A program made the position numbers and the translations under genes. Under the pieces are notes generated by a model. The model ran no database searches. It had not been told where the DNA came from and was given only the letters and a program-made list of their open reading frames with translations. A stretch of 64,000 nt of DNA, taken from Mobula hypostoma (taxonomy: Eukaryota). Below, one piece after another: positions 3,867-60,857 of the stretch. The first letter of the stretch is position 1. Every line of letters begins with the position of its first letter. The stretch lies in assembly GCF_963921235.1 (NCBI RefSeq), contig NC_086108.1, positions 76,448,001-76,512,000 on the forward strand, given 5' to 3'.

Positions 3867-3884
3867 ATATCCTTATGATAATCA

Positions 3885-4391
3885 GTCAGTCAGTCAGTGG
3901 GTACCGTCCCGAATCTGGGGTTGGTGGCCATGCACCTCCATCTTCTTTGATCTTGCGACAGCACCAAGTACAGCCTCTCCTCCAGTTTGTTCTCGCTGGC
4001 CACCTTGGCACCACCTGCCGCCGCCCCCACCGAACTCGAGCCCGAGGCCGTGTCTGCTTCCAGCCGCGGCCGCTTCTTCGAGCTCGGCCCTTCCTTAGGC
4101 GGAGGCCTTGGGCAGGTCCAGGCACACGGTGCAGCGCTCAAGTTCATCATGTCTCTTCTAACTAAGTGCATAGCATACGATTCGTAGATACGTGCTGAGG
4201 CTTTAATCTCTTCCACGGAAGATGGCCGTTGGCTCACAAGGAGCTCATCCGCCCTTTGTCAGGTCTTACTTATTTTTAATCCTGACGGGCTCCTCACACC
4301 CTCCTCACCAGACTAAGTCCGGTGGGAGAGCTGGCCCAAGTCGCCAACCACTCAACCACCACCCCCGGCCGAGCGCCGGCCCCCACTGAAT
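3885..4391 (-). mobile_element. Non-autonomous RTE-like retroelement (structured head plus RTE-type tail) with captured host gene fragment
   Basis: 13-bp TSD cttatgataatca (3872-3884, 4392-4404); (GACT)n tail; tail reads QDQRRWRCMATNP, like RTE ORF C-termini; GC/CpG-rich against AT-rich flanks. Confidence 0.8.
3958..4135 (-). pseudogene. ZFTRAF1: Circularly permuted fragment of ZFTRAF1/CYHR1 first coding exon
   Basis: Order in the element is [11 protein letters not shown](A) then EGPSSKKRPRLEA...ENKLEERLYLVL; the recalled gene order is KKR...[25 protein letters not shown]; joining the end GTGCTGT to the start GCTGCACC restores GTG CTG TGC TGC ACC (VLCCT). Confidence 0.82.
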
Positions 4392-4614
4392 CTTATGATA
4401 ATCACTCGTTTCTTTTTTGGCAATTGGAACTAATTGCTGTGCAGAAGGTTCTACTTGATAAATCCAATTTGTATGATGTTTTGTGTATTATTGGGTTCCA
4501 AGATGGAAGTTCAATGTTTTGATGCTACGGCTATGTCATCTGGGACTGACATTGCCACATTAACAGACACACCCTAAACAGTAATAACAGAATTATGAGA
4601 AAATATAGCAATAT

Positions 4615-28983: not shown

Positions 28984-30682
28984 CCGTCTAGCGGAATTAG
29001 TCCTTACTCTTAATAATTTCTCCTTTGGCTCCTCCCACTTCCCTCAAACTAAAGGTGTAGCCATGGGCACCTGTATGGGTCCCAGCTATGCCTGTGTTTT
29101 TGTTAGCTTTGTGGAACAATCCACGTTCCAAGCCTATACAAGTCTGTCCCCCACTTTTCCTTTGCTACATTGACGACTGCATTGGCGCTGCTTCCTGCAC
29201 GCATGCTGAGCTCGTTGACTTCATTAACTTTGCCTCCAACTTTCACCCTGCCCTCAAGTTTACCTGGTCCATTTCCGACACCTCCCTCCCCCTTCTTGAT
29301 CTTTCTGTCTCTGTCTCTGGAGACAGCTTATCTACTGATGTCTACTATAAGCCTACGGACTCTCACAGCTACCTGGACTATTCCTTTTCCCACCCTGTCT
29401 CTTGCAAAAATGCACCCTTCTCGCAATTCCTCCATCTCCGCCGCAACTGCTCTCAGGATGAGGCTTTTCATTCCAGGACGAAGGAGCTGTCTTCCTTTTT
29501 TAAAGAAAGGGGCTTCCCTTCCTCCACCATCAACTCTGCTCTCAAACGCATCTCTCCCATTTCTCACACATCTGCTCTCACCCCATCCTCCCGCCAGCCC
29601 ACTAGGAATAGGGATCCCCTTGTCCTCACCTACCACCCCACCAGCCTCCGGGTCCAACAAATAATTCTCCGTAACTTCCACCATCTCCAACGGGATCCCA
29701 CCACCAAGCACATCTTTCCTTTCTCCCCTCTTTCTGCTTTCCGCAGGGGTCGCTCCCTATGCGACTCCATTCTCCATTCATCCCCCCCCATTTCCTTCCC
29801 ACCGATCTCCCTCCTGGCACTTATCCTTGTAAGCAGAACAAGTGCTACACATGCCCTTACACTTCCTCCCTCACCACCATTCAGGGCCTCAGACAGTCCT
29901 TCCAGGTGAGGCAACACTTCACCTGTGAGTCGGCTGGGGTGATATACTGCGTCCGGTGCTCCCGGTGCGGCCTTCTATATATTGACGAGACCCGACGCAG
30001 ACTGGGAGACCGCTTTGCTGAACACCTACGCTCTGTCCGCCAGAGAAAGCAGGATCTCCCAGTGGCCACACATTTTAATTCCATGTCCTATTCCCATTCT
30101 GATATGTCTATCCACGGCCTCCACTACTGTCAAGATGAAGCCACACTCAGGTTGGAGGAACAACACCTTATATTCCGTCTGGGTAGCCTCCAACCTGATG
30201 GTATGAACACTGACTTTCTAACTTCCGTTAACGCCCCTCCTCCCCTTCATACCCATCCCTAATTTATTTATTTATTTATCCCCCCCCTCCCCCCCGTCTC
30301 TCTTTTTTCTCCCTCTGTCCCTCTCACTATAACTCCTTGCCTACTCTCCATCTTCCTCTGGCGCTCCCCTCCCACTTTCTTTCTCCCTAGGCCTCCCGTC
30401 CCATGATCCTCTCCCTTCTCCAGCCTTGTATCCATTTTGCCAATCAACTTTCCAGCTCTCAGCTCCATCCCTCCCCTCCTGTCTTCTCCTATCATTTTGG
30501 ATCTCCCCCTCCCCCTTTCAAATCTCTTACTATCTCTTCTCTCAGTTAGTCCTGACGAAGGGTCTCGGCCTGAAACATCCACTGTGCCTCTTCCTGTAGA
30601 TGCTGCCTGGCCTGCTGCGTTCACCAGCATTTTTGTGTGTGTTGCTTAAATTTCCAGCATCTGCAGATTTCCTTGTGTTTGC
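28984..30682 (+). mobile_element. Penelope-like element (probably Neptune type), 5'-truncated: RT, Cys-rich linker, GIY-YIG endonuclease and terminal repeat
   Basis: KGVAMGT...YIDDC...LPLLDL...VYYKPTDSHSYL; CKQNKCYTC; VIYCVRCSRCGLLYIDETRRRLGDRFAEH; pyrimidine-rich 3' region ending in a hammerhead-bearing repeat. Confidence 0.93.
30548..30583 (+). ncRNA. Minimal type I hammerhead ribozyme motif of the Penelope terminal repeat, mutated
   Basis: agtc-CTGACGA-agggtctcggcct-GAAA-catc-cact versus cgtc-gact in better-preserved copies. Confidence 0.7.
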
Positions 30683-30708
30683 ATTTCTTCAGGCTGATTT
30701 GGATGTTA

Positions 30709-31546
30709 CAGTGGCATGCAAAAGTTTGGGCACTCCTGGTCAAAATTTCTGTTACTGTGAATAGCTAAGCAAGTAAAAGATGAATTGATTTCCAAAAGGC
30801 ACAAAGTTAAAGATAGCACGTTTCTTTAATATGCTAAGCAAGAAAACATTTTTATTTCTATCTTTTACAGTTTCAAAATAATAAAAAAGAAAAAGGCCCG
30901 AAGCAAAAGTTTGGGCACCCTGCATGGCAGTACTTAGTAACACCCCCTTTGGCAAGTATCACGGCTTGTAAACACTTTTTGTAGCCAGCTAAGAGTCTTT
31001 CAATTCATGTTTGGGGGATTTTCGCCCATTCTTCCTTGCAAAAGGCTTCTAGTTCTGTGAGATTTTTGGGCCGTCTTGCATGCACTGCTCTTTTGAGGTC
31101 TATCCACAGATTTTCGATGATGTTTAGGTCGGGGGACCGTGAGGGCCATGGCAAAACCTTCAGCTTGCGCCTCTTGAGGTAGGCCACTGTGGATTTTGAG
31201 GTGTGTGTGTAGGTTCATTATCCTGTTGTAGAAGCCATCCTCTTTTCATCTCTGGCTCTTTTACAGATGGTGTCATGTTTGCTTCCAGAATTTGCTGGTA
31301 TTTAATTGAATTCATTCTTCCCTCTACCAGTAAATGTTCCCCGTGCCACTGGCTGCAACACAAGCTCAAAGCATGATCGATCCACCCTCGTGCTTAACAG
31401 TTGGCGAGGGGTTCTTTTCATGAAATTCTGCACTCTCTTTTCTCCAAACATTCCTTTGCTCATTGCAGCCAAAAAGTTCTATTTTAACTTCATCAGTCCA
31501 CAGGACTTGTTTCCAAAATGCATCAGGCTTGTTTAGATGCTCCTTT
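30709..31546 (-). mobile_element. Tc1-like (IR/DR type) transposon, one end plus frameshifted transposase C-terminal half
   Basis: TA|cagtggcatgcaaaagtttgggcac with inner direct repeat gcaaaagtttgggcac at about 30903; motifs VLWTDE, LQQDN, WPSRSPDLNIIENLW. Confidence 0.92.
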
Positions 31547-32064
31547 GAACCTTTTGGCCGCAATGAGCAAAGGTACATGATTGACTACAATTGTGGCTAT
31601 AAGAATGCAGGAACATGGACTGAACCTCATATAGCCACTTGTTCATTGAGTTTACTTATAACCAGGAGGCTCTCTACTAACCTATTCCATGAGGTTGCAA
31701 AAAATCTCAAACATTCTAGCTTATTGGTGCAAATTAGTTAACCAAAGAATAGTTCAATATAATTACTGAGCACATACAAATCACCAGACAAAATGAGGAG
31801 AAAGGGTGAGAAGTGGAGTTCAGACAGATGCTTCTAAAATTGGGCGAGTTATTGATTTGGCAGCTGGCCAACTAGTCAGAGCATCAACTTGAAATGGATA
31901 TCTAGCTTCCTAACTACAGATGCTGGAACTCTAAAACAAAAGCAGAAAATGCTAGGCAAAATGACCTGCTAAGAATTTCAACCATTTTCAATTTATGTTC
32001 AGCTCCTGAACAGCCTGGGTCTTTATTGTTTACACAAAATAATCTGCAGATGCTGGCTTCTAAG

Positions 32065-32460
32065 CAAATGAACACTGAATTCTCCAACTTCCAGTGATTC
32101 CCTCCCCCTCCGTTCCCCCATCCCAGTTTCACTCTGCCCCTCCCCCAGCTGCCTATCACCTCCCTCATGGTTCTGCCTCCTTCTACTACCCATTGTGCTT
32201 TCCCCTATTCCTTCTTCATCTTTCCTGCCTATCCATCCCCTCCCTGCTTCCCCTCCCCCACCCCTTTATCTTTCCCCTTACTGGTTTTTCACCTGGAACC
32301 TACCAGCCTTCTCCTTCTCACCCTCCCCCCACCTTCTTTACAGGGCCCCTACCCCCTCCCTCTTCAGTCCTGATGAAGGGTTCCGGCCCAAAATGTTGAC
32401 TGTTCTTTTCCACGCATGCTGCTCGACCTGCTGAGTTCCTCCAGCGTGTTGTGAGTGCGT
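32065..32460 (+). mobile_element. Penelope-like 3' fragment with decayed hammerhead motif
   Basis: atgaacactgaattctccaacttcc matches the end of the 29-30 kb ORF; cagtc-ctgatga-agggttccggccc-aaaa-tgtt-gactg. Confidence 0.8.
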
Positions 32461-32461
32461 C

Positions 32462-32742
32462 TTTATTGTTTGTTCTCATACAGCTCAGAGTAGGCCCTTC
32501 CAGCACTTCAAGACACGCCGCCCAGCACTCCCCCAATTTACTCCTATTCTGATCACTGGACAATTTACAGTGACCAATTAATCTACTAACCAGTAGGTTG
32601 TTGGACTGTGGGAGCACCCAGAGCATCCAGAAGAAACCCACACAGTTACGGGGAGAACGTACAAACTCCTTACAGGCAGCAATGGGAATTGAACCTGGGT
32701 CACCTGTACTGTAGACAGCTGTGCTAACCACTACGCTACTGT
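32462..32742 (-). mobile_element. V-SINE-like element
   Basis: Reverse of gtagcgtagtggttagcac...ggttcaattcc...tgtacgttctccccgtaactgtgtgggtttc. Confidence 0.8.
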
Positions 32743-33402
32743 TTTACTGCCTTTGGTCGAATTGGATAAATGGATTTGAGCTTTTGCCACTTAACCCACT
32801 ATGAACAAAAGAAGCTTCAAAAATACAGTGCACGTGAAAAGTCAACATGAAGTCTGAAAAGGAATGGCCCATACTTAAACCTAGCAAATCTCTATTGACT
32901 CAGGCTCCACCAATTGCAATTAAGGACAGCTCCCTTAGCTAACAAGTCGCATGAAGCAGCCATAATGACCAGCTTCCCAAGTCAATAAAGATTAAGTCTA
33001 ATTGTCAGTGAATGTCAGTCACAAACCCACTTTTGTACTGCATTCTGCCACTGGATCAACATTTAGCTCCACAACACAAAAATCAGGCCAGTGTCTGTGC
33101 CAACATTTTTGCCCACTAATCCCACTTGCCCACAAGTCAGTATCTATCTGAGTATTGCCTATTCAAGTGCCTGTTTAAATACTTGTTAAACCGACTGGTT
33201 TGGATAAAATTCCATCACCTCTCCTGGCAGTGAAATCCAGAGATCAACTATTCTTTGTGCAAAAAAAAAATCCCCTCAAGTCTCTTTTAAATCTCCTTCT
33301 TAGTCCTCTTGTTTTAGATATGCTACAATGAGGAAAATTTCAGACCATCTAATCAGACTGTTTTTTTTTGTAATTTTATATAGCTCTATCACGTCACCTC
33401 AC

Positions 33403-34292
33403 AGAATCAGAATCAGGTTTAATATCACCAGCATGTGTCATGAAATTTGTTGTCTTAGTGGCAGCAGTACAATGCAATACATAATAATAGAGAAAAAAAA
33501 CAAGAATTGCAGTAAGTATATATATAAAACAGTTAAATTAAATAAGTAATGAAAAAATTAAAAAAAAATAAAAAGTAGTGAGGTAGCGTTCAGGGGTTCA
33601 ATGTCCATTCAGAAATCAGATGGCAGACGGGAAGAAGCTGTCCCTGAATCGTTGAGTGTGTGCCTTCAGGCTCCTGTACCTCCTCGCTGATGGTAGAACT
33701 GAGAGCAGGATATGTCCTGGGTGATAGGAATCCTTAATGATAGATGCTTCCTTTTGGGGCATCACTCCATGAAGATGTCCTGGATTCTACAAAGGCTAGT
33801 GCCCATGATGAAGTTAAGTTTACAACTCTCTGTCACTTACTTTAATCCTGTGCAGTAGCCCAGGATAGATCCGCAGAGATACTGACACGCAGGAACTTGA
33901 AATTGCTCACTCTTTCCACTTCTGATCCCTCTATGAGGACTGGTGTGTGTTTCCTCGTCCTATCCTTTTTGAAGTTCGCCATCAGTTCTTTGGTCTTACT
34001 GATGTTGAGTGCAAGGTTGTTGCTGCAGCACCACTCAACTAGCTGATATGTCTCACTCCTGTATGCCCTCTCATCACCATCTGAAATTCTGCCAACAATA
34101 ATTGGGTCATCAGCAAATTTAAAGATGGCATTTGAGCTGTGCTTAGCCATATATGTGCTTAGTCATGGGTATAGAGACAGTAGAGCAATGGGCTAAGCTG
34201 ACATCCCTGTGATGCACCAATGTTGATTATCAGTGAGGCGGAGATGTTATTTCCGATCTGCACAGACTGTGGTCTTCCGATGAGGAAGTCAA
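33403..34292 (-). mobile_element. Rex1/Babar-clade LINE fragment
   Basis: KHSSNAIFKFADD...NNLALNISKTKEL; plus-strand (agaatc)n tail. Confidence 0.88.
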
Positions 34293-34610
34293 GCCTCCAT
34301 TGCTTCCACTACTCCAGGCAAAACAAGACCAACCTATCCAACCTTTCCCCATAACTAAAGTCCTATAATTCTGACAACATCCTGATCCTCTGATTCTTTA
34401 CAGCACAATCACATCCTTCCTATGGTGTAGTGACCAGGAATTCACACAATACTCCAAGTGTGGTCTAATCTGTGTTTCATTAAGTTAAAACATAACATTC
34501 CAACTTTTATACTCTATATACCAACCTAACTACCCTTCCAAAGAACTATGAACTCCAAAGTCTCCCTGCTCATCAACATTCCCCACCATTTACTGTATAA
34601 ATGCTGTTTG

Positions 34611-36911
34611 CAATTAGAAGGGAGAACACGTTGGACCTTGTTTACACAAACATTCCCGACACGTAACGGGCGAAGCCCAGCCCCCACCACGGCTACTCAG
34701 ACCACATCTCTGTTTTGCTAATCCCAGCATACAGACTGCTCATCAGGCACTCCAGACCAGTTCAGAAGCAGGTGAAAACCTGGCCAGCAGGAGCCATCTC
34801 TGCTCTTCAAGACTGCTTTGAGCACACTGACTGGCACACGTTCAGGGAGGCTGCAACCGATGGCGACTCTACCAACTTAGAGGAGCACACAGCATCAGTG
34901 ACTAGCTACATCAGCAAGTGCATCAATGACGTCACTGTGGCCAAGACCATCACTACACGTGCTAACCAGAAGCCATTCATTACCGCGGAGGTGCGTGCAC
35001 TACAGAAGACCCGTGACTCCACCTTCAGAGCAGGTAACAAGGCAGCCCTAACAACAGCGAGTACCAAACTGTCCGGGGCCATCAGAGAGGGAAAGCGTGC
35101 ACATGCCCAGCGAATCCACAGCTACTTCCAGGACAGCGGCGACACACGGCACATGTGAAAGGACATTCAGGACATCACCAACTACAAGACAACACCACCT
35201 GCCTGTGCTGGTGATGCCTCCCTCCCAGATGCGTTGAATGACTTCTACGCTCGTTTTGAGGCGGAAAATTATGTGGTGGCGAGGAAGACCACCCCTCCTC
35301 CAAACGACCAGCTGCTGTGTCTTACTGTGGCCGATGTGAGGAGAACCCTGTGTAGGGTCAGCCCACTGAAGGCTGCTGGATCAGACAATATTCCTGGCAG
35401 AGTGCTTAGAGGATGTGCAGACCAGCTAGCTGAGATTCTCACTGACATCTTCAACATCTCCCTGAGCAGCGCCGTTGTTCCTACGTGCTTCAAGGCCGCC
35501 ACCATCGTCCCCGTGCCGAAGAAGTCTTCAGTGTCCTGCCTCAACGACTACCGTCTCGTCGCACTCACATCCATCATCATGAAGCATTTCGAGAGGCTCG
35601 TCATGAGGCCAAGACCCTGCTGCCCCCCTCACTGGACACCCTGCAGTTTGCGTATCGTCCCAACCGTTCAACAGATGAAGCCATTGCCATCACCCTCCAC
35701 CTGGCCCTAACCCACCTGGACAAAAAAGACACGTACATTCGAATGCTGTTCATAGATTTCAGTTCAGCATTCAACACAATCATTCCTCAGAAACTGATTG
35801 GAAAACTGAGCCTACTGGGCCTGAACACCTCCTTCTGCAACTGGATCCTAGACTTCCTGACTGGGAGACCTCAGTCAGCCCGGATTGGAAGCAGCATCTC
35901 CAACACCATCACACTGAGCACGGGGGCCCCCAGGGCTGTGTGCTCAGTCCACTGCTGTTCACTCTGCTGACCCACGACTGTGCAGCAATACACAGCTCGA
36001 ACCACATCATCAAGTTCGCCGATGACATGACCGTGGTGGGTCTCATCAACGAGAATGATGAGTCAGCATACAGAGAGGAGGTGCAGTGGCTAATGGACTG
36101 GTGCAGAGCCAACAACCTGTCTCTGAATGTGAACAAAATAAAAGAGATGGTTGTTGACTTCAGGAGGACGCGGAGTGACCACTCTCCGCTGAACATCGAT
36201 GACTCCTCCGTAGAGATCGTTAAGAGCACCAAATTTCTTGGTGTTCACCTGGCAGAGAATCTCACCTGGTCCCTCAACACCAGCTCCATAGCAAAGAAAG
36301 CCCAGCAGTACCTCTACTTTCTGCGAAGGCTGAGAAAAGTCCATCTCCCAACCCCCATCCTCACCACATTCTACAGAGGTTGTATTGAGAGCATCCTGAG
36401 CAGCTGCATCACTGCCTAGTTTGGAAATTGCACCATCTCGGATCGCAAGACCCTGCAGTGGATAGTGAGGTCATCTGAGAAGATTATCGGGGTCTCTCTT
36501 CCCACCATTACTGACATTTAAACCACACGCTGCATCCGTAAAGCAAGCAGCATTACGAAGGACCCCATGCACCCCTCATACAAACTCTTCTCCCTCCCGC
36601 CATCTGGCAAAAGGCACCAAAGTATTCAGGCTCTCACGACCAGACTATGTAACAGTTTCTTCCCCCAAGCCATCAGACTCCTCAATACCCAGAGCCTGGA
36701 CTGACACCAACCTACTGCCCTCTACTGTGCACATTGTCTTGTTTAGTATTTATCGTAAAGCCTGCACTGTTTTGTGCACTTTATGCAGTCCTGGGAACGT
36801 CTGTAGTCTAGTGTAGTTTTTGCACCATGGTCCTGAAAAACGTTGTCTCGTTTTTACCAGCAGTTATGGTCGAAATGACAATAAAAATTGACTTGACTTG
36901 ACTTGACTTGA
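34611..36911 (+). mobile_element. Rex1/Babar-clade LINE, long and relatively young copy
   Basis: [60 protein letters not shown]; tail aataaaaa(ttgac)5. Confidence 0.93.
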
Positions 36912-37590
36912 TAGGAGGGGAGGAGAAGATGGCGGCACGATGCAGCGCACACGGCTGCTCCGAAATGATATCGTATTTGTTAAATAGGGGCCGTGCACAA
37001 TCCTGATTTGATGGAGACAGACGTGAGAAGCACGGAGGAACATCTGGAGAAATTTCTGAAATGCCCGCTTCGCTGCCGCTGCTACTGTGCGATCGAGAAT
37101 CTCTGGAGGGGAAAGCCCCAAATCTTCCACTTTGCCTATTGTCTGTTGCCGGGGCTGGGGTCGAAGCACTCGGCAGAGATGGTGCTCGGTGTCGGAGGGC
37201 TGGTCGGAGGCTCGAAGTTTTCAGACGGACTCAAGAGTCGGCTGTGGTCGGGTGCTTCCAGGGTGCTGCATTGGCAAGTTTGCGGCGCTGGAGGTTCATG
37301 GCAGGAAGAGAGTTTCTCTTCCTTCTACCGTCTGCGTGAGATGATGGGACTTAGGAGAGACTTTGAGACTTCTTTTTTTACTGTGCCCATGGTCTGTTCT
37401 TATCAAATTACAGGATTGCTTTGCACTGTTGTAACTACATGTTATAATTATCTGGTCTTTGTCAGTTTTTCAGTCTTGTTTGTCTTGTGTTTCTGTGATA
37501 TCATTCTGGAGGAACATTGTATCATTTCTTAATGCATGCATTACTAAATGACAATAAAAGACTCTGTGTCCTCATAATCTAATAATCTAA
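36912..37590 (+). mobile_element. Non-autonomous element with GC-rich head and Rex1-like tail
   Basis: Starts ggagaagatggcggc; CpG-rich body without RT motifs; ends aaatgacaataaaa...(taatct)n, like the adjacent Rex1 tail. Confidence 0.6.
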
Positions 37591-38725: not shown

Positions 38726-41077
38726 TACATACATATGAATAAATAGTTCTGTTTTCATGCTTGCTAGTTTACTGGGCTTTGAGCTTCTAAAGCTTTGCCT
38801 TGACAAAACACACACACGCAAGGTGTTTGTCTAAAATTACAGTCATAATCTACTGATGTAACTATTTTATAACTGAAACCCAGCCATAATGGTAGGACAG
38901 CACAACAATGCTGCAGATTTAAGGAAAATGGTTGATTTATTGAACTCAGTTTTATAACTTCTGGACCATTTCTCCCAGAAGGAACCTTCAAGTAATGCTG
39001 TCCTTTTACCAGTGAGGAAAGATCATCTAATCCTCAATCAAAATCTGTTTCATGATCATCCAGCAAAAACTGTAAATGTGACATCTCAAGTAGGACTCAA
39101 CCAATAATCCAGATGAAAACATGAAAACTGTTCTTTTTGTTAGCGAAATGATTCTAGTCATAGTTTGTCAATGAACTGAAACTTTCTGCTTCTGACCATT
39201 TGTTTACCCTACTTCTTGTATGTCACATGCAATAAGACCCTTTAATTTATTAGAATGTGGCACGCAAAAATAGCCCAAATTAATTTCCATAGTCCCTTAT
39301 AATGGGATAAAATAACTGAGGTTCCAGTTGCTTGTTGCGTTCATTTTTCATTGCATGTCTCTTCTAACTTTTGTCTTTGACCTTGCACACTTCCAGCTAA
39401 GCTTAACATATGCAAGGCACAGCACATCAGCTTCCAAGTCAACATATTTTAAGATGAGCAGTATATTCTACAGATAATCAGCCATTTCAGTAGCTAATCA
39501 GTATCGCACAATTCTATCATTCACTGTTCCTCTCACCTCTACCTCTTCTCTCTCTTCTGCAGCCATTTTCACTTTAAACTTTCAGAAGACACAACTGTTG
39601 TTCTTCAATAGCCTTTCCCAATCCCTTTCAATAGAACCCACCATCGCATCATCTCCTCCTTCACCACCATTCAGGGCCCCAAACAGTCCTTCAAGGTGAG
39701 GCAACACTTCACTATGAGTCTATTGGAGTCACCTATTGTATCTGGTGCTTCTGGTGCAGCCTCCTCTACATCGGTAAGACCTGATATATATATACACATA
39801 CATACATCAGGGTCAGTTTGTCAAGCACCTTTGCTCTGTCAGTCACAAAAGGCAAGATCTCCCAGTTCAATTTCAAATGACTTCCCATTCCCATTCTAAC
39901 ACTTCTGCTCATGGCCTCCTGTACTGTCATGATGAGACCAAACTTAAATTGGAGGAGAAACACCTCATACTCTGACTGGGTAGCCTCCAAATCAATGGCA
40001 TAAACATCAATTTCTTTAACTTCCAGTACCTTCTTGTCCCTCCTTCCTTTTTTCCATTTCCTATTCTAGTTATCCTCTCACTCCTCTTCTCCCATCATGG
40101 CCATCATCACTTTCTCTTGTTCTCCTCCTCCTTCCCTTTCCTTCCACGGTCCACTGAAGTTCCAAAAGAAGTTGGAGGCAAAATCAGATGCACGTCAACT
40201 CTGGCAGGATTTGCAGGCCATTAATTCCTACAAAGTGAAACTAACACAATGAATGGCAGTGGTGCTTCATTTCCAGATGAGCTCAATGCCTTTATGCTCG
40301 CTTTGAAAGGGAGAATAAAACTACAGATATGCGAATCCCTGCAGCACCAGTGACCCTGTGATCTCTGTCTCAGAGACAGATGTCAGGGTGTCTTTCAATA
40401 GGATGAACCATCACAAGGTGACATGCCCCAGTAGAGTACCTGGCAGCGTCTTAAAACCTGTGCCAGTCAACTGGCAAAGGTGTTCAAACACATTTTCAAT
40501 CTCGACTTGCTACAGCCCGAAGTTCCTACCTGCTTTAAAAGGGCAGCAATTATACTATTAGCCATGAAGAGCATGGTGAGCTGCCTTAATGACAATCATC
40601 CAGCCATACTTAAAACTACGGTAATGAAGTGCTTTGAGAGATTGTTTATAGCTAGAATTAACACCTATCTCAGCAAGGACCTGGACCCACTGCAATTCAA
40701 TTGAAAAAGAAGTGAATGCAGTTACTATTACTAGGGGAAAGGTGCTCAAAAAGCTGGAAGACCTAAGGGTACATAAGTCACCAAGAGCAGATGAACTGCA
40801 CCCTAGGATTCTGAAAGAGGTAGTGGTCGAGGTTGTGGAGGCATTAGTAATGAACATTCAAAAATCATTGGACTCTGGCATGGTGCCAGAGAACTCAAAC
40901 ATTGCAAATGTCACTCCACTCTTTAAGAAAGAAGGAAGGCAGCAGAAAGGAAATTATAGACCAGTTAGCCTGCAGAAAGGAAATTAAAGACCAGTTAGCT
41001 TGACCTCAGTGATTGGGAACATGTTGGAGTCAATTGTTAAGGATGAGGTTATGGAGCACTTGATAGGACAAAGTCAG

Positions 41078-41329
41078 GCAACAGACATCAAAGTTGCTGG
41101 TGAACGCAGCAGGCCAAGCAATGCCTCTAGGAAGAGGTACAGTTGACGTTTCGGGCTGAGACCCTTCGTCAGGACTAACTCTTCTTTCAGTTAGTCCTGA
41201 CGAAGGGTCTCGGCCCAAAACGTCGATTGTACCTCTTCCTAGAGATGCTGCCTGGCCTGCTGCGTTCACCAGCAACTTTGATGTGTGTTGCTTGAATTTC
41301 CAGCATCTGCAGAATTCCTTGTGTTTGTG
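41078..41329. mobile_element. Palindromic Penelope terminal-repeat insertion carrying two inverted hammerhead motifs
   Basis: 103-bp arms 41078-41180 / 41189-41291, 8-bp spacer, 38-bp unpaired right tail, 13-bp TSD aggacaaagtcag (41065-41077, 41330-41342). Confidence 0.92.
41141..41176 (-). ncRNA. Minimal hammerhead ribozyme motif (core intact, first helix I pair mismatched)
   Basis: agtc-CTGACGA-agggtctcagccc-GAAA-cGTC-aact; the plus-strand partner (41193-41228) has GAAA changed to AAAA. Confidence 0.75.
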
Positions 41330-44300
41330 AGGACAAAGTCAGCATGGCTTCCGTAATGAAAAATTTTGCCTGACAAACCTGTTGGAATTCTTTGAGAAGA
41401 TTACAAGCAGGTTGGATAAAGGGGATGCAGTGGATATTGTATATTTGGACTTTCAGAAGGCCTTTGACAAGGTGCCACACATGAGGCTGCTTACCAAGTT
41501 AAGAGCCCATGGTATTACAGGAAAGTTACTAGCACAGTTAGAGCATTGGCTGATTAGTAGAAGGCAGCAAGTGGGAATACAAGCATCCTTGTCTGATTGG
41601 CTGCCACTGACTAGGGGTATTCCGCAGTGATTGGCTTCTTAATATGTTGTATATCAATGATTTAGATGATGGAATAGATGGCTTTGTTGCCAAGTTTGCA
41701 GATGATACAAAGATTAGTGTCCGGGTAGGTAGTGTTGGGGAAACAGGTAGACTGCAGAAGGAGTTAGACAGATTAGGAGAATGGGCAAGAGAGCAAATGA
41801 AATACAAGGTTGGAAAATATATGGTCATGCACTTTGGTAGTAGAAATAAATATACAGGCTATTTTCTAAATGGTGAGAAAATCCAAAAATCTGAGATGCA
41901 AAGGGACTTGGGAGTCCTCATGCCGAACACCCTAAAGATTAACTTGCAGGTTGAGTCAGTGGTAAGGAAGGCTAATGTAATGTTAGCATTCATTTCAACA
42001 GGTCTTGAATATTGTGATCTGTTTTCGAGCTCCTCATCTCAAAAAAGATGTGCTGGCATTGGAGAAGGTCCAGAGGCAGTTCACAAGGGTAATTCCAGGA
42101 ATTGAAGGGTTATCATATGAAGAACATCTGGTGGTTCTGGGTTTGTGCTCGCTGGAATCTAGAAGGATGAGGGGGGATCTCATTGAAACCTTTTAAATGT
42201 TGAAAGGCCTAGACAGAGTAAATGTGGAAACAATCTTTCTGAAGGTGGGGGAGTCTAGGTCAAGACAGCACAGCCTCAGGATAGAGGGGAGTACATTTAA
42301 AACAGAAATGTGGAGAAATTTCTTTAGCCAGAGGGTAATGAATTTCTGGAATTTGTTACCACAGGCAGCTGTGTAGGCCAGGTTGTTCAGTGTATTTAAG
42401 GCAGAGGTTGATAGGTTCTTGATTGAACAAGCATCAAAGGTTACAGGGAGAAGGCCGAGGAATGGAGTTGAGGAGGGGGATAAAATGAACAGCCATGATT
42501 GAATGGCAGAGCAGACTAGATGGGCCAAATGGCCTAATTCTGATCCTGTGTCTTATGGTCTCAATTTGCCTATCACAATAGGTCTACAGCAGACTCAATC
42601 TCACTAGCTCTTCACATGGCCTTGGATCACCTGGACAATAGAATAACCTATGTTAGGATGCATGTTATTGACTATAACTCAGCATTTAACACAATTATTC
42701 CTCTAGTTCTGATCAAAAAGCTCCAGACCCTGGGCCTCTGTACCTCCGTCTGCAACTGGATCCTTGACTTCCTAACCGGTAGACCTCAATCTGTGAGGAT
42801 CATAAACAACATCCCCACCTTGCTGACAACCAAATCTGGTACACCTCAGGGATGTGTGCTTAATCCACTGCTCTACTCATTCTACACCCATGACTGTGTG
42901 GCTAGGCATAGCTCAAATGCCATCTGTAAATTTGCTGACGATGCAGCCATTGTTGGCAGAATTTCAGACAGCGGCAAGTGGGTTTACAGCAGTGAAATAT
43001 ACCAGATAGTTGAGTGGTGTTGTTGCAACAACCTTGCACTCAATGTCAGCAAGACCAAAGAACTGATTGTAGACTTTAGAAAGGATCAGCTGAGAGAACA
43101 CACACCAGTCCACGTAGAGGGATCAGAAGTGGAAAGACTGATGCATTTCAAAGTCCTGGATGTCAATATCTCTGACGATCTAACCTGGACCCAATATATT
43201 GAGGCAGTTACAAAGAAGACACAATAGCACCTATGTTCCATTAGGAGTATGAGAAGTTTTGGTATGTCTCCAAAAACACTTGAAAATTTCTACAAATGTA
43301 CCATGGACATCTGTACTGGCTGCATCACTCTCTGGTATAGGGTTGGGAGAGAGCTACTGCATAGGATTGAAATACGCTGCAGCGAGTTGTAAATTTAGTC
43401 AGCTCCATCATTGACGGCACCAGCCCCTGCGATCCAGGACATTTTCAAGAAGTGATGCCTCAAAAAGGCAGTGTCCATCATTAAGGACCCCCATCACCCA
43501 GGTAACTTGTTCTCATTGCTATCATCAGGAAGGAGATACAGAAGCATGAAGGCACACACTCAACGATTCAGGAACAGCTTCTTCCCCTCTGCCATCTGAT
43601 TTCTGAATGAACATTGAACCCATGAACACTACCTCACTACTGTTTTTATATTTTTATTTTTCCATTACTTATTTAATTCAACTTATTTTATACCTATCTA
43701 ACACCTGCCGCTTGTACCCCTTCTCTTCCTCCCTCATTATTTTACCGGCTTCTGCCCCCTTGCTTTCCAGTGCTGATGAAGAGTTTTCAGCCCAAAATGT
43801 TGACTGTTTATTCTCCTCCATAGATGCTGCCTGACCTGCTAAGTTCTTCCAGCATTTTGTGTGCTTTATTCAAGATCTCCAGCATTTACATAATCTCTTG
43901 TATTTAGTATTTGTCATTTGGTCTTGCTGCTCCCCGATCTGTCATAACCCTTCACCTTCATTCTTCCCTTCACCTTCATTCTTTCCATTCCTCCCCAGCA
44001 CACCTTCCATCATACCTTGCACTTTCCAGGTTTGATCAAGAATCACTGATCTAAAATGTTAAATTGGTTTACCTCCAGGGATACTGTCTGATTCACTAAG
44101 TATTTCCAATATGTTATGAGGAAAAGTGTAACCATGTTACCATTACCACTTGTTTTGTTCTTTGGCAAATTGCTTCAGAGTTCAGTATATTTTAATTTTG
44201 CCATATTCTGAATAGGAGCACCAATGTATAAACTAAGACCTGAAATACATCAAAAAAAGATTCCACTTATCTTCTAGCTACTTTAAATTCACCCAAGTTT

Positions 44301-49100: not shown

Positions 49101-49560
49101 ATCAATGTAGAAATCTTTTTGTAATACCAATACCTACTGAATTAATTTTCACCATTTGTTCTGGTAAGATTTGAGCTCACGTTTACCAGGTTGTTAACTG
49201 AGTACAATAACATTAAAGTTAGTAAGCCTATTTGGACTTGTTAGAGTTTGGATCTGAAGTGACACAACTGACCAGAAATTTCAATGTACCAATGAACATG
49301 GCAATAAAAGAAGAACAGATGTCATGTAATCTGTGTGATTAACTCATCTCTTGACCAGTCAAAGCAAATACACAACTTGCAATGCCCAAGTTAGGAGTAT
49401 CATAAAATTCTAGTTAAAATACCCATGAAGCTCAACACAATAAAGGGCCAAGCAGTTAACAATGTCATTCTTGGACCTGAACTAAACAGTGATCTTACAG
49501 TGGCTATTTTATGTACCACCTATCATGTAAAATTCATAATAGCAATTCACAAAATCTTCT

Positions 49561-52500
49561 ACAATAATAGACAATAGGTGCAGGAGTAGGCCATTTGACC
49601 CTTCGAGCCAGCACCACCATTCACTGTGATCATGGCTGATCATCAGCAATCAGTATCCAGTTCCTGCCTTCTCCCCATATCCCTTCACTCCACTATCTTT
49701 GAGCTCTACCTAACTCTTTCTTGAAAGCATCCAGAGAATTGGCCTCCACTGCCTTCTGAGGCAGAGCATTCCACAGATCCACAACTCTCTGGGTGAAAAA
49801 GTTTTTCCTCAGCTCCGTTCTAAATGGCCTACCCCTTATTCTTAAACTATGGCCTTTGGTTCTGGACTCCCCCAACATCGTGAACATGTTTCCTGCCTCT
49901 AATGTGTCCAATCCCTTAATAATCAGATCTCCTCTCATCCTTCTAAATTCCAGTGTATACAAGCCCAGTCGCTCCAATCTTTCAACATATGACAGTCCCG
50001 CCATCCTGGGAATTAACCTCATGAACCTATGCTGCACTCCCTCAATAGCAAGAATGTCCTTCCTCAAATTTGGAGACCAAAACTGCACACAAGGTGGGTC
50101 TCACCAGGGCCCTGTACAACTGCAGAAGGACCTCTTTGCTCCTATACTCAACTCCCCTTGTTATAAAGGCCAACATGCCATTAGCTTTCTTCACTGCCTG
50201 CTGTACCTGCATGCTTACTTTTCAGTGACTGATGAACAAGGACACCTAGATCTCATTGTACTTCCCCTTTTCCTAACTTGACACCATTCAGATAGTAATC
50301 TGCCTTCCTGTTCTTGCCACCAAAGTGGATAACCTCACATTATCCACATTAAACTGCATCTGCCATGTATCTGCCCACTCACCTAACCTGTCCAAGCCAC
50401 CCTGCATTCTCATAACATCCTCCTCACATTTCACACTGCCACCCAGCTTTGTGCCATCTGCAAATTTGCTAATGTTACTTTTAATGCCTTCATCTAAATC
50501 ATTAATGTACAAACGTTTGTATATTGTAAATACAAACGTAGCTGCGGTCCCAGCACTGAGCCTTGCCGTACCCCATAGTCACTGCCTGCCATTCTGAAAG
50601 GGACCCATTGATCCCTACTCTTTGTTTCCTGTCTGCCAACCAATTTTCCATCCATGTCAGTACCCTATCCCCAACACCATGTGCTCCAATTTTGCCCACT
50701 AATCTCCTATGTGGGACCTTTTCAAAGGCTTTCTGAAAGTCCAGGTACACTACATCCACTGGCTCTCCCTTGTCCATTTTCATAGTTACATCCTCAAAAA
50801 ATTCCAGAAGATTAGTCAAACATGATTTCCCCCTCGTAAATCCATGCTGATTCAGACCGATCCTGTTACTGCTATCCAAATGTACTGCTATTTCATCTTT
50901 TATAATTGACTCCAGCATCTTCCCCACCACTGATGTCAGGCTAACTGGTCTATAATTCCCTGTTTTCTCTCTCCTTCCTTTTTTAAAAAGTGGGATAACA
51001 TTAGCTACCCTCCAATCCGCAGGAACTGATCCTGAATCTATAGAACATCGGAAAATGATTACCAATGCATCCATGATTTCTAAAGCCACCTCCTTAAGTA
51101 CCCTGCGATGCAGACCATTAGGCCCTGGGGATTTATCAGCCTTCAATCCCATCAGTCTATCCAACACCATTTTCTGCCTAATGTGAATTTCCTTCAGTTC
51201 TTCCGTTACCCTAGGTCCTCTGGCCACTATTATATCTGGGAGATTGTTTGTGTCTTCCTTAGTGAAGACAGATCCAAAGTACCTGTTCATCTCGTCTGCC
51301 ATTTCTTTGTTCCCCATAATAAATTTCTGTCTTCTGTTTCTGTCTTCAAGGGCCCAACTTTGGTCTTAACTAATTTTTTCCTCTTCACATACCTAAAGAA
51401 GCTTTTACTATCCTCCTTTATATTCTTGGCTAGTTTACCTTCGTACCTCATCTTTTCTCCCCGTATTGCCTTTTTAGTTATCTTCTGTATCTCTTTAAAA
51501 GTTTCCCAATCCTCTGGCTTCCCGCTCATCTTTGCTATGTTATACTTCTTCTCTTTTACTGTCCTTGACTTCCCTTGTCAGCCACAGTCGCCCCTTTCTC
51601 CCCTTAGAATCTTTCTTCCTCTTTGGAATGAACTGATAGTCATAGTCATAGTCATACTTTATTGATCCTGGGGAAATTGGTTTTCGTTACAGTTGCACCA
51701 TAAATAACTAAATAGTAATAAAACCATAAATAGTTAAATAGTAATATGTAAATTATGCCAGGAAATAAGTCCAGGACCAGCCTATTGGCTGAGGGTGTCT
51801 GACCCTCCAAGGAAGGAGTTGCAAAGTTTGATGGCCACAGGCAGGAATGACTTCCTATGACGCTCTGTGTTGCATCTCGGTGGAATGAGTCTCTGGCTGA
51901 ATGTACTCCTGTGCCCAACCAGTACATTATGTAGTGGATGGGAGACATTGTCCAAGATGGCATGCAACTTGGACAGCATCCTCTTTTCAGACACCACCAT
52001 CAGAGAGTCCAGTTCCATCCCCACAACATCACTGGCCTTACGAATGAGTTTGTTGATTCTGTTGGTGTCTGTTATCCTCAGCCTGCTGCCCCAGCACACA
52101 ACAGCAAACATGATAGCACTGGCCACCACAGACTCGTAGAACATCCTCAGCATCATCCAGCAGATGTTAAAGGACCTCAGTCTCCTCAGGAAATAGAGAT
52201 GGCTCTGACCCTTCTTGTAGACAGCCTCACCTTCTGTATTATTCCCAGAAATACCTGCCATTGTTGTTCCACTGTCATCCCTGCTAGGGTATCTTTTCAG
52301 TCAACTTTGGCCAGCTCCTCCCTCATGGCTCCATAGTCCCCTTTGTTCAACTGTAATACTGACACTTCCAATTTTCCCTTCTCCCTCTCAAATTGTAGAT
52401 TAAAACTTATCATATTATGGTCACTACCTCCTAATGGCTACTTTACCTCAAGTTCCCTTATCAAATCCGGTTCATTACACAACACTACATCCAGAATTGC

Positions 52501-53250
52501 CTTCTCCCTGGCAGGCTCTAGTACAAGCTGCTCTAAGGATCCATCTCGGAGGCACTCCACTAACTCCCTTTCTTGGGGTCCAGTACCAACCTGATTTTCC
52601 CAGTCTACCTGCATGTTGAAATCCCCCATAACAACCGTAGCATTACCTTTGCAATATGCCAATTTTAACTCTTGATTCAACTTGCACCCCATATCCAGGC
52701 TACTGTTTGGGGGCCTGTAGATAACTCCCATTAGGGTCTTTTTGCCCTTACAATTTCTTAGTTCTATCCATACTGACTCTACATCTCCTGATTCTATGTC
52801 ACCCCTCGCAAGGGACTGAATTTCATTCCTCACCAACAAGCCACTCCACCCCCTCTGCCCACCTGTCTGTCCTTTTGATAGGACGTATACCCTTGAATAT
52901 TCAATTTCCCAGCCCTGGTCCTCTTGCAGCCATGTCTCTGTTATTCCTACAACATCATACTTGCCAATTTCCAACTGAGCCTCAAGCTCATCCACTTTAT
53001 TTCTTATACTTCGTGCATTCATATATAATACTTTTAATCCATTTCTCCCCTCACCTTTCACATCGATTCCTATTGCACTTGGCCATATTCTCCGATCCCT
53101 TCCTGAGCTTTCTGCCCCATTAATTGTGTTGTCTTTCTTAACTTTTCTTATTCTCTCTTTCCCTTTAACTCCATCCCTTATATTTCCAGTTCGTCTCCTT
53201 CCCCCAACTACTTAGTTTAAACACACCCGTGTAGCAGTGGCAAATCTGCC
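49561..53250 (-). mobile_element. CR1-clade LINE with nearly complete but frameshifted ORF2 (APE endonuclease plus RT)
   Basis: LYMNARSIRNK, GITETWL, IYRPP, VMGDFN; KSPGPNG, NYRPVSLTS, YLDFQKAF, KFADG, FFTQRVVDLWN; plus-strand tagacaat tail. Confidence 0.95.
51638..52227 (-). mobile_element. Rex1/Babar-like 3' fragment inserted in CR1
   Basis: [17 protein letters not shown]...HPLH...RHRKSFLPVAIKL; plus-strand (agtcat)n tail; CR1 sequence resumes on both sides. Confidence 0.88.
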
Positions 53251-55602: not shown

Positions 55603-58600
55603 GAAATAGCAAATTCGTGCCAGAAAAGACAATCTTGTGAACCTTCATGTTATGATTAGATATCCATGAATCCATGTTACAGGTGTAAGAAAATCAAAAG
55701 CTGTCTTAAAGGCTATAGATTCATCTACTTTTTGGGTTACTCCTAGAGCCATGTTAAACTCTGGATTCACTTAAATGTTAAATTTATTGGGAAAGAAAAT
55801 TGATCCAAGGGTAAAAGGTCCGTTGATCACTTGAAGTCCATTGCTTCTAACTTATAAGGAAAGCTCAATTCTGACCCTGGGTACAATTTGGGAAAATCAA
55901 ATGTGCTACATTGCAACATTGATACAATTAACCTCAACAAACATAGCTTTTAATATTTTTATAAATGTGTAAATATTTCTGATACTAAAATAGATGCAGC
56001 ACACAGCCTCATGTCTCACACGTTTTAATAAAGTAAAAGCTGCATGGTAGCTATTTGTACTACAAAACAGATAAAAGGTTTCAAGATAAGGTTGAGAATT
56101 TACCAAGAGTTGAAGATTCACCAAGGCTCAATTAGAGCCAATTATTATTCTAACTACATGTCTGTTTTGTTTCTGAAGGGGAACTAAAAATTAATTATAC
56201 CACCAACAGAATAGCTTGACGATGCAGAATTATTAGTCTTTAATATGTCTATATTATATAATTAGTCAAATCTATGTTAATTTCCCAGTTGAATTATCAT
56301 AATTTAATTTTTGGTAATTTTTCTTCAGGAATTTATTTATATTGCATTGCAGTAATTTATTTACTAACATCTTAACTTCTAAATAAGAGAAGATATACAT
56401 GTTCTCTTTTATATTTTACAGGCTAATTCAGTTTTCTCCCCCTTGCTGCATGCAGCTGTTTGCTTTCTAATCTTGTACCAGCCCACCTGATCCACCTCCA
56501 CAATAGCTGCAACATTTAACAGTTTTTTCCTCCTTCAAATGCGTCGTTATTGACACTCTGCAAAAAAGTAAAAATCATTGCAAAGTACTCTCCAACCTCC
56601 ATTGCAATGGCTTCAAATTTGTTGCAGCCCCTCCAAAGTCATGAACATTTTTCATCAAACAACTGATGACATTTCATGCAATCAAGACTCCACCTTGCTT
56701 CAGTACACAAATGTTCCAGTACAAATTACTATTGTTATCCTATGTGATTGTGACAGAAGTAGTCTACTGCTTCTCATTTACTTGCCCAGCAGGCTTTGAC
56801 AAGAGTGTACATCTTCCAAAGTCTTCCCACCATCACCCACTGTACAGGACGAACTGGCTGAGTTTTATTCTTAATTCTCTTTACATTCCTATATAATCAC
56901 CAGTAATGAATTCTCTTCCTGTCCCATTATTGCTGGGGTATCCTATAAATAACCTTATGTTTTCACTTGTCCTTTCATTTCTGCCTTTTCCATCATCTAC
57001 GGACCAAAACAGTCCCTCCAGGTGAAGCAACAATTAATTCACTGGCACTTCTTCCTATCTATCAGAATCAGGTATCACCGCCATTTGCCTTGACAATTTG
57101 TTGTTCTGCGGCAGCAGTACATTGCAATACATAATAATCATTTAAAACTTTAAATTTCAAAAATACATATCTAAGAAAATTAAATTCAGCCGTGCAAAAA
57201 GAGAACAAAAAATGAGGTAGTGTTCATGGGTTCATTGTCCATTCAGAAATTTGATGGCAGATGGGAAGAAGCTGTCCCTGAAACACTGAGTGCGTGTCTT
57301 CTCCTCCTTGCTGGTAGCAAAGACAGTATGTCCTGGGTGATGGGCATCCATAGTGATTGATGCCACCTTCCTGAGCCATCACCTTTTAAAGATGTTTTTG
57401 ATGCTAGTGCCCACGATGAAGCTGGCTGTATTTACAACTTTCTGCAGTTTCTTCCAATCCTGTGCAGTGGCCCCCTCCATGGTATACCTGTAGAAATTTG
57501 CCAGTATCTTCAGTAACATACCAAGGCTCCTCAAACTCCAAATGAAATATAGCTGCTGTTATGCCTTCTTTATAATTGCACTAATATTTTGGACCCAGGA
57601 TAGAGCTTCAGTGATGTTGACACCTACGAACTTGAAACTGCTCACCCTATCCACTGCTGTTCCCATGATGAGGACTGGAGTGTGTTCCCTCAATCTCCCC
57701 TTCCTGAAGTCCACCATCAATTCCTTGGTCTTGGAGGCATTGCGTGCAAGGTTGTTTTAGTGACACCACTCAACCAGCTGATCTATCTATATGGGGAGCA
57801 AGGACATGGCAGACCAATTGAATAATTACTTTGGTTCTGTCTTCACTAAGGAGGACATAAATAATCTTCCAGAAATAGTAGGGGACAGAGGGTCCAGTGA
57901 GATGGAGGAACTGAGCGAAATACATGTTAGTAGGGAAGTGGTGTTGGGTAAATTGAAGGGATTAAAGGCAGATAAATCCCCAGGGCCAGATGGTCTGCAT
58001 CCCAGAGTGCTTAAGGAAGTAGCCCAAGAAATAGTGGATGCATTAGTGATAATTTTTCAAAACTCGTTAGATTCTGGACTAGTTCCTGAGGATTGGAGGG
58101 TGGCTAATGTAACCCCACTTTTTAAAAAAGGAGGGAGAGAAAAACCAGGGAATTATAGACTTGTTAGCCTAACGTCGGTGGTGGGGAAACTGCTGGAGTC
58201 AGTTATCAAAGATGTGATAACAGCACATTTGGAAAGCGGTGAAATCATCGGACAAAGTCAGCATGGCTTTGTGAAAGGAAAATCATGTCTGACGAATCTC
58301 ATAGAATTTTTTGAGGATGTAACTAATAGAGTGGATAGGGAAGAACCAGTGGATGTGGTATATTTGGATTTTCAAAAGGCTTTTGACAAGGTCCCACACA
58401 GGAGATTAGTGTGCAAACTTAAAGCACACGGTATTGGGGGTAAGGTATTGATGTGGATAGAGAATTGGTTAGCAGACAGGAAGCAAAGAGTGGGAATAAA
58501 CGGGACCTTTTCAGAATGGCAGGCAGTGACTAGTGGGGTACCGCAAGGCTCAGTGCTGGGACCCCAGTTGTTTACAATATATATTAATGACTTGAATGAG

Positions 58601-59442
58601 GGAATTAAATGCAGCATCTCCAAGTTTGCGGATGACACGAAACTGGGCGGCAGTGTTAGCTGTGAGGAGGATGCTAAGAGGATGCAGGGTGACTTGGATA
58701 GGTTGGGTGAGTGGGCAAATTCATGGCAGATGCAATTTAATGTGGATAAACGTGAAGTTATCCACTTTGGTGGCAAAAATAGGAAAACAGATTATTATCT
58801 GAATGGTGGCCAATTAGGAAAAGGGGAGGTGCAATGAGACCTGGGTGTCATTATACACCAGTCATTGAAAGTGGGCATGCAGGTACAGCAGGCGGTGAAA
58901 GAGGCGAATGCTATGCTGGCATTTATAGCGAGAGGATTCGAGTACAGGAGCAGGGAGGTACTACTGCAGTTGTACAAGGCCTTGGTGAGACCACACCTGG
59001 AGTATTGTGTGCAGTTTTGGTCCCCTAATCTGAGGAAAGACATCCTTGCCATAGAGGGAGTGCAAAGAAGGTTCACCAGATTGATTCCTGGGATGGCAGG
59101 ACTTTCATATGAAGAAAGACTGGATGAACTGGGCTTGTACTCGTTGGAATTTAGAAGATTGAGGGGGGATCAGATTGAAACGTATAAAATCCTAAAGGGA
59201 CTGGACAGGCTAGATGCAGGAAGATTGTTCCCGATGTTGGGGAAGTCCAGAACGAGGGGTCACAGTTTGAGGATAAAGGGGAAGCCTTTTAGGACCGAGA
59301 TTAGGAAAAACTTCTTCTCACAGAGAGTGGTGAATCTGTGGAATTCTCGGCCACAGGAAACAGTTGAGGCCAGTTCATTCAACACACATCAAAGTTGCTG
59401 GTGAACGCAGCAGGCCAAGCAGCATCTGTAGGAAGAGGTGCA

Positions 59443-59476
59443 GTCGACGTTTCAGGCCAAGACCCTTCGTCAGGAC
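59443..59476 (-). ncRNA. Minimal type I hammerhead ribozyme motif, core intact
   Basis: gtc-CTGACGA-agggtcttggcct-GAAA-cGTC-gac; helix I gtc/gac, palindromic ACGT in place of helix III. Confidence 0.8.
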
Positions 59477-59477
59477 C

Positions 59478-59511
59478 GTCCTGACGAAGGGTCTCGGCCT
59501 GAAACGTCGAC
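59478..59511 (+). ncRNA. Minimal type I hammerhead ribozyme motif, core intact
   Basis: gtc-CTGACGA-agggtctcggcct-GAAA-cGTC-gac; predicted cleavage 3' of C59508. Confidence 0.8.
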
Positions 59512-60857
59512 TGCACCTCTTCCTACAGATGCTGCTTGGCCTGCTGTGTTCACCAGCAACTTTGATGTGTGTTGCTTGAATTTCCAGCATCTGCAGAATT
59601 CCTGTTGTGAGGCCAGTTCATTGGCTATATTTAAGAGGGAGTTAGATATGGCCCTTGTGGCTACGGGGATCAGAGGGTATGGAGGGAAGGCTGGTGCAGG
59701 GTTCTGAGTTGGATGATCAGCCATGATCATAATAAATGGCGGTGCAGGCTCGAAGGGCCGAATAGCCTACTCCTGCACCTATTTTCTATGTTTCTACGTA
59801 TCTCAATTCTGCACACCTCCTCGTCACCATCTGAAATTCAGCCGACAGTAATTGTGTCACCAGCAAATTTATAGATGGCATTTAAGCTGTGCCTAACCAA
59901 GCAGTCATGGGTGTAGCTGGAGTAGAGCTGTGGGCTAAGCACACATCCTTGAGGTGTTGATTGTCAGCAAGATGGAGATGTTATTTCCAATCTGCAGTGA
60001 CTGGGGTCTCCCGATGAGGAAGTCAAAGATCTGGTTGCAGAGGAAGGTACAGAGGCCCAGGTTTTGCAGCTTGTTGATTAAAACAAGGGCCTGATTGTGT
60101 TGATTGCTGAGCTGTCATCAATAAACAGCAGCTTGACATAGATATTGCTATTGTCCAGATGATATAAGGCTGAGTAGACAGCCAGTGAGACTGCATCTGC
60201 TACAGACCTACTGTGGCGATAGGCAGATGGCAGTGTGTCCAGGTACTGAACTTGCTTAAGCAGGAGTTGATTCTGACCATGACCAACCTCTTAAATCACT
60301 TAGCACAGTAGATGGCAATGCAACTGGGTGATAGTCATTGAGGCAGCTCACCCTGCTCTTCTCGGGCACTGGTATGATTATCATCCTTTTGAAGCCGATG
60401 GGGCCCTCTGACTGGAGCAGTGAAAGATTGAAGATGTCCTTGAACACTCCTGCCAGTTGATTGGCACAGATTTTCAGTGCACTACCAGGTACACCATTAG
60501 GGTCTGACACCTTGTCATTGGCCTCTGAGACAGAGATCACAAGGTCAACAGATGCTGCAAGGATCTGCCCAGGTCGAGTTTTATTCTCCCTTTCAAAGCA
60601 TGCATAAAAGGCATTGAGCTCATCTTGGAGTGAAGCATCACAGCCATTGATGATGGTCAGTTTCACCTGCAAAGTGATGGTCTACAAATCTTGCCAGAGC
60701 TGACTCCCACTACTGCATTTGGTGCTCATGATGTGATCGCTTCCAGTACAACCTGACATACTGATCCTTAATTTGGGCTAGCAAAGGTTATAGCAATTTG
60801 TAGGGAAATCCCTATTCCCTCTCTGTTGCCCATCCATGAAAAATAATGCACAAAAAT

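Follow-up and report, generated by a model that had tools for sequence, protein, structure and literature searches.

The window analysed here, a stretch of 64,000 nucleotides from Mobula hypostoma (contig NC_086108.1, positions 76,448,001 to 76,512,000), carries on its minus strand a 5'-truncated member of a non-autonomous family derived from an RTE-type LINE; this copy spans approximately 4391 to 3885 between 13-bp target-site duplications and holds in its middle a piece of the first exon of the host gene ZFTRAF1 (also CYHR1) in permuted order (Table 1).

Table 1 Features of the element and its target site in the window
Feature	Position	Strand	Remarks
3' copy of target-site duplication	3872..3884	-	13 bp; first 3 nt overlap the tail repeat
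Last ~72 nt of parent LINE	3885..3957	-	ORF end, (ACTG)n tail, stop codon at 3892-3890; joined bluntly to half A; six LINE copies match at 96-99%
Putative chimeric ORF	3890..4171	-	93 codons, opened by the start codon and closed by the stop codon of the LINE; ZFTRAF1 frame kept in half A and lost in half B
Half A	3958..4095	-	138 nt of ZFTRAF1 exon 1 (parent 1646-1783), which in the gene immediately precede half B; 129/138
Half B	4096..4135	-	40 nt of ZFTRAF1 exon 1 (parent 1784-1823), stops 4 nt short of splice donor; 39/40; initial 2 nt common with LINE
5' part of parent LINE	4136..4360	-	5' UTR, start codon and first codons, with 7-nt and 10-nt deletions; upstream boundary approximate; 89% to L078 and L079
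Leader remnant	4361..4391	-	GC-rich 5' leader of the family, truncated at its 5' side by ~95 nt in this copy; boundary approximate
5' copy of target-site duplication	4392..4404	-	13 bp

Window positions 3958-4135, read on the minus strand, hold 178 nt of ZFTRAF1 exon 1 in a gapless, circularly permuted order: the downstream 40 nt stand ahead of the upstream 138 nt. Aligned with the sense strand of exon 1 (reverse complement of locus L034, whose numbering gives the parent positions used here), bases 1-40 of the insert fall on half B and bases 41-178 on half A; the insert thus corresponds to parent 1646-1823 with the opening placed between 1783 and 1784. Its halves abut without gap or overlap, and the permuting join sits between window 4096 and 4095. 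An earlier note on this DNA had claimed this order, a join without gap or overlap, and a location within a retroelement; all three are confirmed, with LINE sequence found on both flanks. The same note took the insert for exactly one turn of a circle, which holds if the initial two nucleotides (GC), which are also the next two of the LINE, are assigned to ZFTRAF1; otherwise the insert is 176 nt long (range 176-178 nt) and falls short of a full turn. The 178 bp (71% GC, 20 CpG) come from the first exon and CpG island of the gene and lie in sense orientation relative to the LINE.

A genome search with a related protein placed ZFTRAF1 at a single locus of the 3.48-Gb genome (four exon matches on contig C5), and the named proteins nearest to the translated half A are those of batoid ZFTRAF1/CYHR1 (three of 80 candidates), in agreement with the gene assignment of the earlier note. 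The gene structure given there likewise stood: exon 1 ends at parent 1827 and is followed by a GT donor, which puts the permuting join 4 nt before the true donor; exon 2 opens at the Cys codon, that is, directly before CTNGH; and an AG precedes the upstream half in the genuine exon. Intron 1 measures approximately 91 kb (C5:227999891-228091002), and exons 2 and 3 are a further ~63 kb apart. A tandem duplication, which would give the permuted order linearly, is absent from 9.9 kb of the parent locus, where each half is found once.

The insert stands in for the ~2.9-kb interior of a 3.2-kb LINE, whose 5' ~215 nt (89%) and last 72 nt (96-99%) form its flanks, giving an element of about 590 nt at full length. 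The left flank had also been considered as the end of a second LINE, a candidate rejected as it matches the 5' end of the same LINE. Two nucleotides are common to LINE and ZFTRAF1 at the left junction and the right junction is blunt; two deletions relative to the LINE, of 7 and 10 nt, are fixed upstream of the insert within about 60 nt. Seven of the 30 loci fetched with the tail are copies of the LINE itself, two of them extending to a 5' end (~3.2 kb each). It carries endonuclease and reverse-transcriptase domains, and intact relatives of ~1010 aa show 66-68% identity. RTE elements are about 3.2 kb long and have one ORF of ~1000 aa with endonuclease and reverse transcriptase; by this architecture the parent LINE appears to be of RTE type, an assignment made with no named RTE among its homologues. 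The first ~115 nt of the family, a GC-rich leader (L003:1155-1270), differ from the leader of the LINE copy L078 (2050-2275) save for a match of 31 nt; an internal deletion in the leader is common to several family copies, and another LINE subfamily or a host promoter are candidate sources.

Copies of this chimera are numerous. The junction between insert and tail gave 507 exact pattern matches genome-wide, a lower bound on the number of family copies, and the same tail in the parent LINE gave 176 (controls 0 in both cases): by matched 3' junctions, the derivative outnumbers its parent approximately 3:1. A DNA search had given 923 first-look candidates. Sixty distinct copies, the top-scoring matches after removal of the duplicate loci L037 and L046, were aligned; their 5' ends are staggered while their 3' end is common, they carry (ACTG)n tails and show target-site duplications, and their mean distance from the majority sequence is 5.4%, in a sample biased to young copies. 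The family has spread by target-primed reverse transcription, and these hallmarks of insertion demonstrate that LINE machinery copied the product in trans. The majority sequence has three differences from the gene over 178 positions and one from the LINE tail over 72, a proximity which points to one recent founding event. An ancestral subfamily was looked for among the 60 copies and discarded, the gene-like letters at three diagnostic positions occurring in four, one and two copies, with no overlap. Individual copies have been rearranged: L011 is interrupted by ~640 nt of other DNA, L016 contains additional internal sequence, L047 has lost ~47 nt just past the permuting join, and L076 and L077, on different contigs, carry the same 6-nt duplication beside it.

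Pattern searches of the genome for possible intermediates were negative. An insert-free deletion derivative of the LINE gave no match; a second insert-free search gave 48 (control 7), which, judged by eye from the strings, were 45 mutated family copies and three unrelated sequences. No copy combining the LINE's 10 nt with the insert was found, and the search for another insert at the same tail junction gave one match and no second family. One family copy searched against Rfam gave a single match at chance level (E=1).

Most of the argument about origin turns on the permuting join, in which parent 1823 is followed by 1646. In an exact back-splice 1827 would be followed by 1648, for a product 2 nt longer. 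The earlier note had added these 2 nt to obtain a circle of 180 nt and expected a family consensus reading TACCAG joined to GAAGGG, an expectation which failed: the columns of the join are identical and free of insertions in 60/60 aligned copies, the fusion reads as blunt with nothing lost, and the two nucleotides are missing from every copy looked at. A gap pattern laid over the join found 238 matches genome-wide, and the 100 of them that were listed are all of the short type; a relaxed pattern for a longer gap had two, both 6-nt duplications; and a fixed pattern for the 180-nt join had 20, all with three mismatches and none a family junction (control 5). The position of the join is nevertheless not random. 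Among 130,901 random breakpoint pairs drawn in the CpG island, an end no more than 4 nt ahead of the donor is seen in 1.15%, a start with AG in 7.4% and the two together in 0.07%, and an end so close to the donor, being rare by chance, points to an end of an RNA. It should also be noted that both parent ends have a 3-nt AGG in common, by which an exact back-splice and a microhomology join would yield the same 180-nt product; this product alone would therefore not prove splicing.

The putative acceptor is a GAG with nine pyrimidines in the 20 nt upstream, a single T among them, and another AG within 20 nt; it ranks near the top third of the 36 AG sites of the exon. By eye, the three real acceptors of the gene are CAG with 14-15 of 20 pyrimidines, and a better candidate of the same kind (CAG, 15/20) lies 24 nt upstream of the GAG. 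RNA folding strongly predicts a hairpin (L034 sense 1600-1656, reverse complement) in which the AG of the breakpoint pairs with a pyrimidine-rich stretch; such a structure could act as a pause site for reverse transcriptase at the upstream breakpoint. A stem bringing together the two ends of the 178-nt loop was predicted at a pair probability of at most 0.007 in three mRNA contexts, and none closing the loop exceeded 0.05 in twelve folding contexts.

The chimeric frame is open in 35 of 59 copies, a count given without comparison to a neutral expectation, and the start methionines of the intact LINE relatives, by eye, match the start of the element. None of 13 candidates from protein databases scored against the chimeric peptide. 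If the LINE's 10 nt are restored, the LINE frame enters half B in the native frame of ZFTRAF1; combined with a 180-nt join, each of the three junctions between the LINE's start and its stop is then read in the native frame, whereas with the 178-nt join a stop codon falls at the join. The losses of the family, 10 + 2 nt, sum to 12, and the frame is open again from start to stop. These frames mildly favour a 180-nt ancestor, by about threefold at most and only if an open frame was selected. That the 60-codon circle has no stop, another point of the earlier note, is true and carries no weight, since all three frames of a 180-nt circle are stop-free.

How, then, was the founder made? The weights given below to the explanations are judgements and not computed values. 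The sense orientation, the replaced interior of the LINE, the lack of an empty derivative in the searches and the donor-proximal end jointly argue for capture during reverse transcription, which we consider probable; the first three bear out the proposal of the earlier note that the piece was captured by template switching. Our preferred explanation, which is tentative and would account for slightly under half of our expectation, is that the reverse transcriptase jumped between templates and that the join was not made by the spliceosome. The founder would have arisen in a single event of reverse transcription: the LINE enzyme would start at the 3' end of its own RNA and copy 72 nt, jump to ZFTRAF1 exon-1 RNA, copy half A, pass across the join onto half B, halt on reaching its entry point and return to the 5' end of the LINE via the 2-nt match. 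The join itself could mark a jump of the enzyme across the exon-1 piece, starting at one end and landing close to the end on the donor side; alternatively, a fragment of exon 1 that had been trimmed at its 3' end could have been ligated to a circle and opened once. One exact turn would fit such a once-opened circle, and it would also be expected if the enzyme moved downstream by a jump on linear RNA and came to a halt at the hybrid it had itself made. Having retained the promoter region and the 3' recognition tail of the LINE, the product was copied in trans, with the exon piece as a passenger.

Template jumping by this enzyme is suggested by likeness to the non-LTR enzyme R2, for which back-to-back jumps from blunt ends, end to end on RNA or DNA, are documented (PMC11789487), as are jumps in vivo (PMC3414825). 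Reverse transcription across open-ended RNA has been named as a route to such joins independent of circRNA (Dong et al. 2016, PMC4897178), and template-switch capture with the anatomy seen here is described for LTR elements (PMC5131818, PMC5408686). The account has its costs: the predicted lack of a stem bringing the ends together counts against it, the AG that opens half A has to be put down to coincidence (at the 7.4% given above) or to microhomology followed by a 2-nt skip, the self-jump variant requires three jumps rather than two, and the reading frames speak mildly against it.

Back-splicing of the exon-1 donor to the cryptic AG, as put forward in the earlier note, is the strongest competitor, although we regard it as rather doubtful. 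In this case a 180-nt circRNA, nicked or entered once, would have been captured by the LINE and the founder would have lost 2 nt. It accounts jointly for donor proximity and the AG, the combination met by so few random pairs; a once-opened circle needs two jumps only and yields exactly one turn; with two other small deletions fixed near the insert a third would not be far-fetched; the restored frames are native at every junction; and the long intron 1 would leave the donor unpaired for a long time. The claim stood as to the donor and the upstream AG and failed as to the exact join: no copy has the 180-nt join, none keeps the 10 nt together with the insert, the 2-nt deletion must fall on the join itself, and the acceptor is poor beside the real ones and the better CAG upstream, with its AG predicted to be paired.

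A circular DNA, the alternative named in the earlier note, is less probable still. A nucleosome-sized germline circle of ~180 bp from the ZFTRAF1 CpG island would, after a single opening, have been incorporated into the LINE while a break or a LINE integration was being repaired, or have served the enzyme as a template. Germline eccDNAs are mostly ~180 or ~360 bp long, GC-rich and enriched at 5' UTRs (PMC10581685), which the length, GC and CpG content and first-exon origin of the insert fit, and circular DNA intermediates have been reported for permuted duplications (PMC3245284, PMC7450558). The blunt 178-bp join would need no later deletion, and a 4-bp inverted repeat stands immediately outside both parent breakpoints (0.7% by chance). 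However, DNA gives no reason for an end within 4 nt of the donor or for the sense orientation, and no pre-existing deleted element that could have served as insertion site was found. Microhomology joining is reported as the main route to eccDNA (PMC10581685), whereas the 178-bp join has 0 nt of it; the AGG route has 3 nt for a 180-bp join, seen in no copy, and requires the same 2-nt loss as the splice model. Capture of two fragments of one broken exon-1 RNA in swapped order by end-to-end jumps, or copying of a since-lost tandem duplication, is the least likely reading: two of the three joins are blunt and R2 is known to make concatemers from separate templates (PMC11789487), but both sister fragments must meet at one enzyme, and a lost duplication has left nothing in the 9.9 kb of the parent locus and does not explain a stop at exactly one unit.

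Among known systems, the element is best described as a three-part variant of the bipartite non-autonomous RTE LINEs (Bov-A, RTESINE1/2, MAR4_MD; Kojima 2018, PMC5786205), in which LINE ends are joined with loss of the interior, a microsatellite tail is present and mobilisation occurs in trans; both ends of the present element come from one LINE, and 5' truncation, target-site duplications and the microsatellite tail are all found. The R2 SIDEs are comparable in joining both ends of one autonomous LINE, losing the interior and being mobilised in trans, and they include R2Dwi_SIDE, whose 197-bp middle has no known source, and a hybrid containing rDNA spacer (PMC3414825). What sets our element apart from both is the permuted 178-nt host coding exon between the two LINE parts. 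In LTR-mediated template-switch retroposition (Tan et al. 2016, PMC5131818), sense host sequence likewise replaces part of the ORF and the chimera keeps transposing non-autonomously; there the median similarity at switch points is 6 bp, in contrast to 2 nt and 0 nt here, where the host is moreover a non-LTR element and the order permuted.

The circRNA-derived pseudogenes (mouse circRFWD2; Dong et al. 2016, PMC4897178) are alike in being a non-colinear, multiplied piece of a host gene with retrotransposon flanks and no poly(A). They have the exon-exon back-splice junction of a known circRNA, LTR flanks and up to 33 copies; the present family has an intra-exon join 2 nt short of the splice join, a non-LTR host and at least 500 copies. 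As the test of the exact junction failed, we do not file the element among them. Germline eccDNA/microDNA (Hu et al. 2023, PMC10581685) resembles the insert in size (~180 bp), GC richness and location at the 5' end of a gene, and differs from it by the blunt join, the donor-proximal end and fixation in a retrotransposon. In the literature searched we found neither this family nor a permuted exon within such an element described; Repbase and Dfam lay outside the search, and the family may be catalogued there.

Elsewhere in the window, two near-perfect fold-backs (59361-59593 and 41070-41299, with arms of 116 and 111 nt set 1 and 8 nt apart) belong to one common repeat family, and long stretches of decayed repeats, which lie in both orientations and have many interrupted reading frames (29000-37500, 40400-43300, 49500-53200 and 57400-60500), are probably other LINE families.

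The hundreds of copies of ZFTRAF1 exon 1 can mislead annotation, read mapping and circRNA calling in this species. General caution is also warranted in reading a permuted, donor-proximal join as a back-splice, which it need not be. Dong et al. (PMC4897178) called the mechanism by which circRNAs are reverse-transcribed into genomes mysterious; with the three junctions and both parents, gene and LINE, known at nucleotide resolution, the present case makes a direct test possible. Were the family a true circRNA fossil, in which a first-exon circRNA was copied for one turn by a germline LINE enzyme and became the body of a SINE-like family some three times as abundant as its parent, a scenario to which we give distinctly less than even credence, it would be evidence that non-LTR enzymes can capture circular RNA between their own ends. 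Whatever made the join, a host coding exon has become the middle of a successful non-autonomous LINE derivative, and the case bears on the origin of those SINE bodies whose source is unknown.
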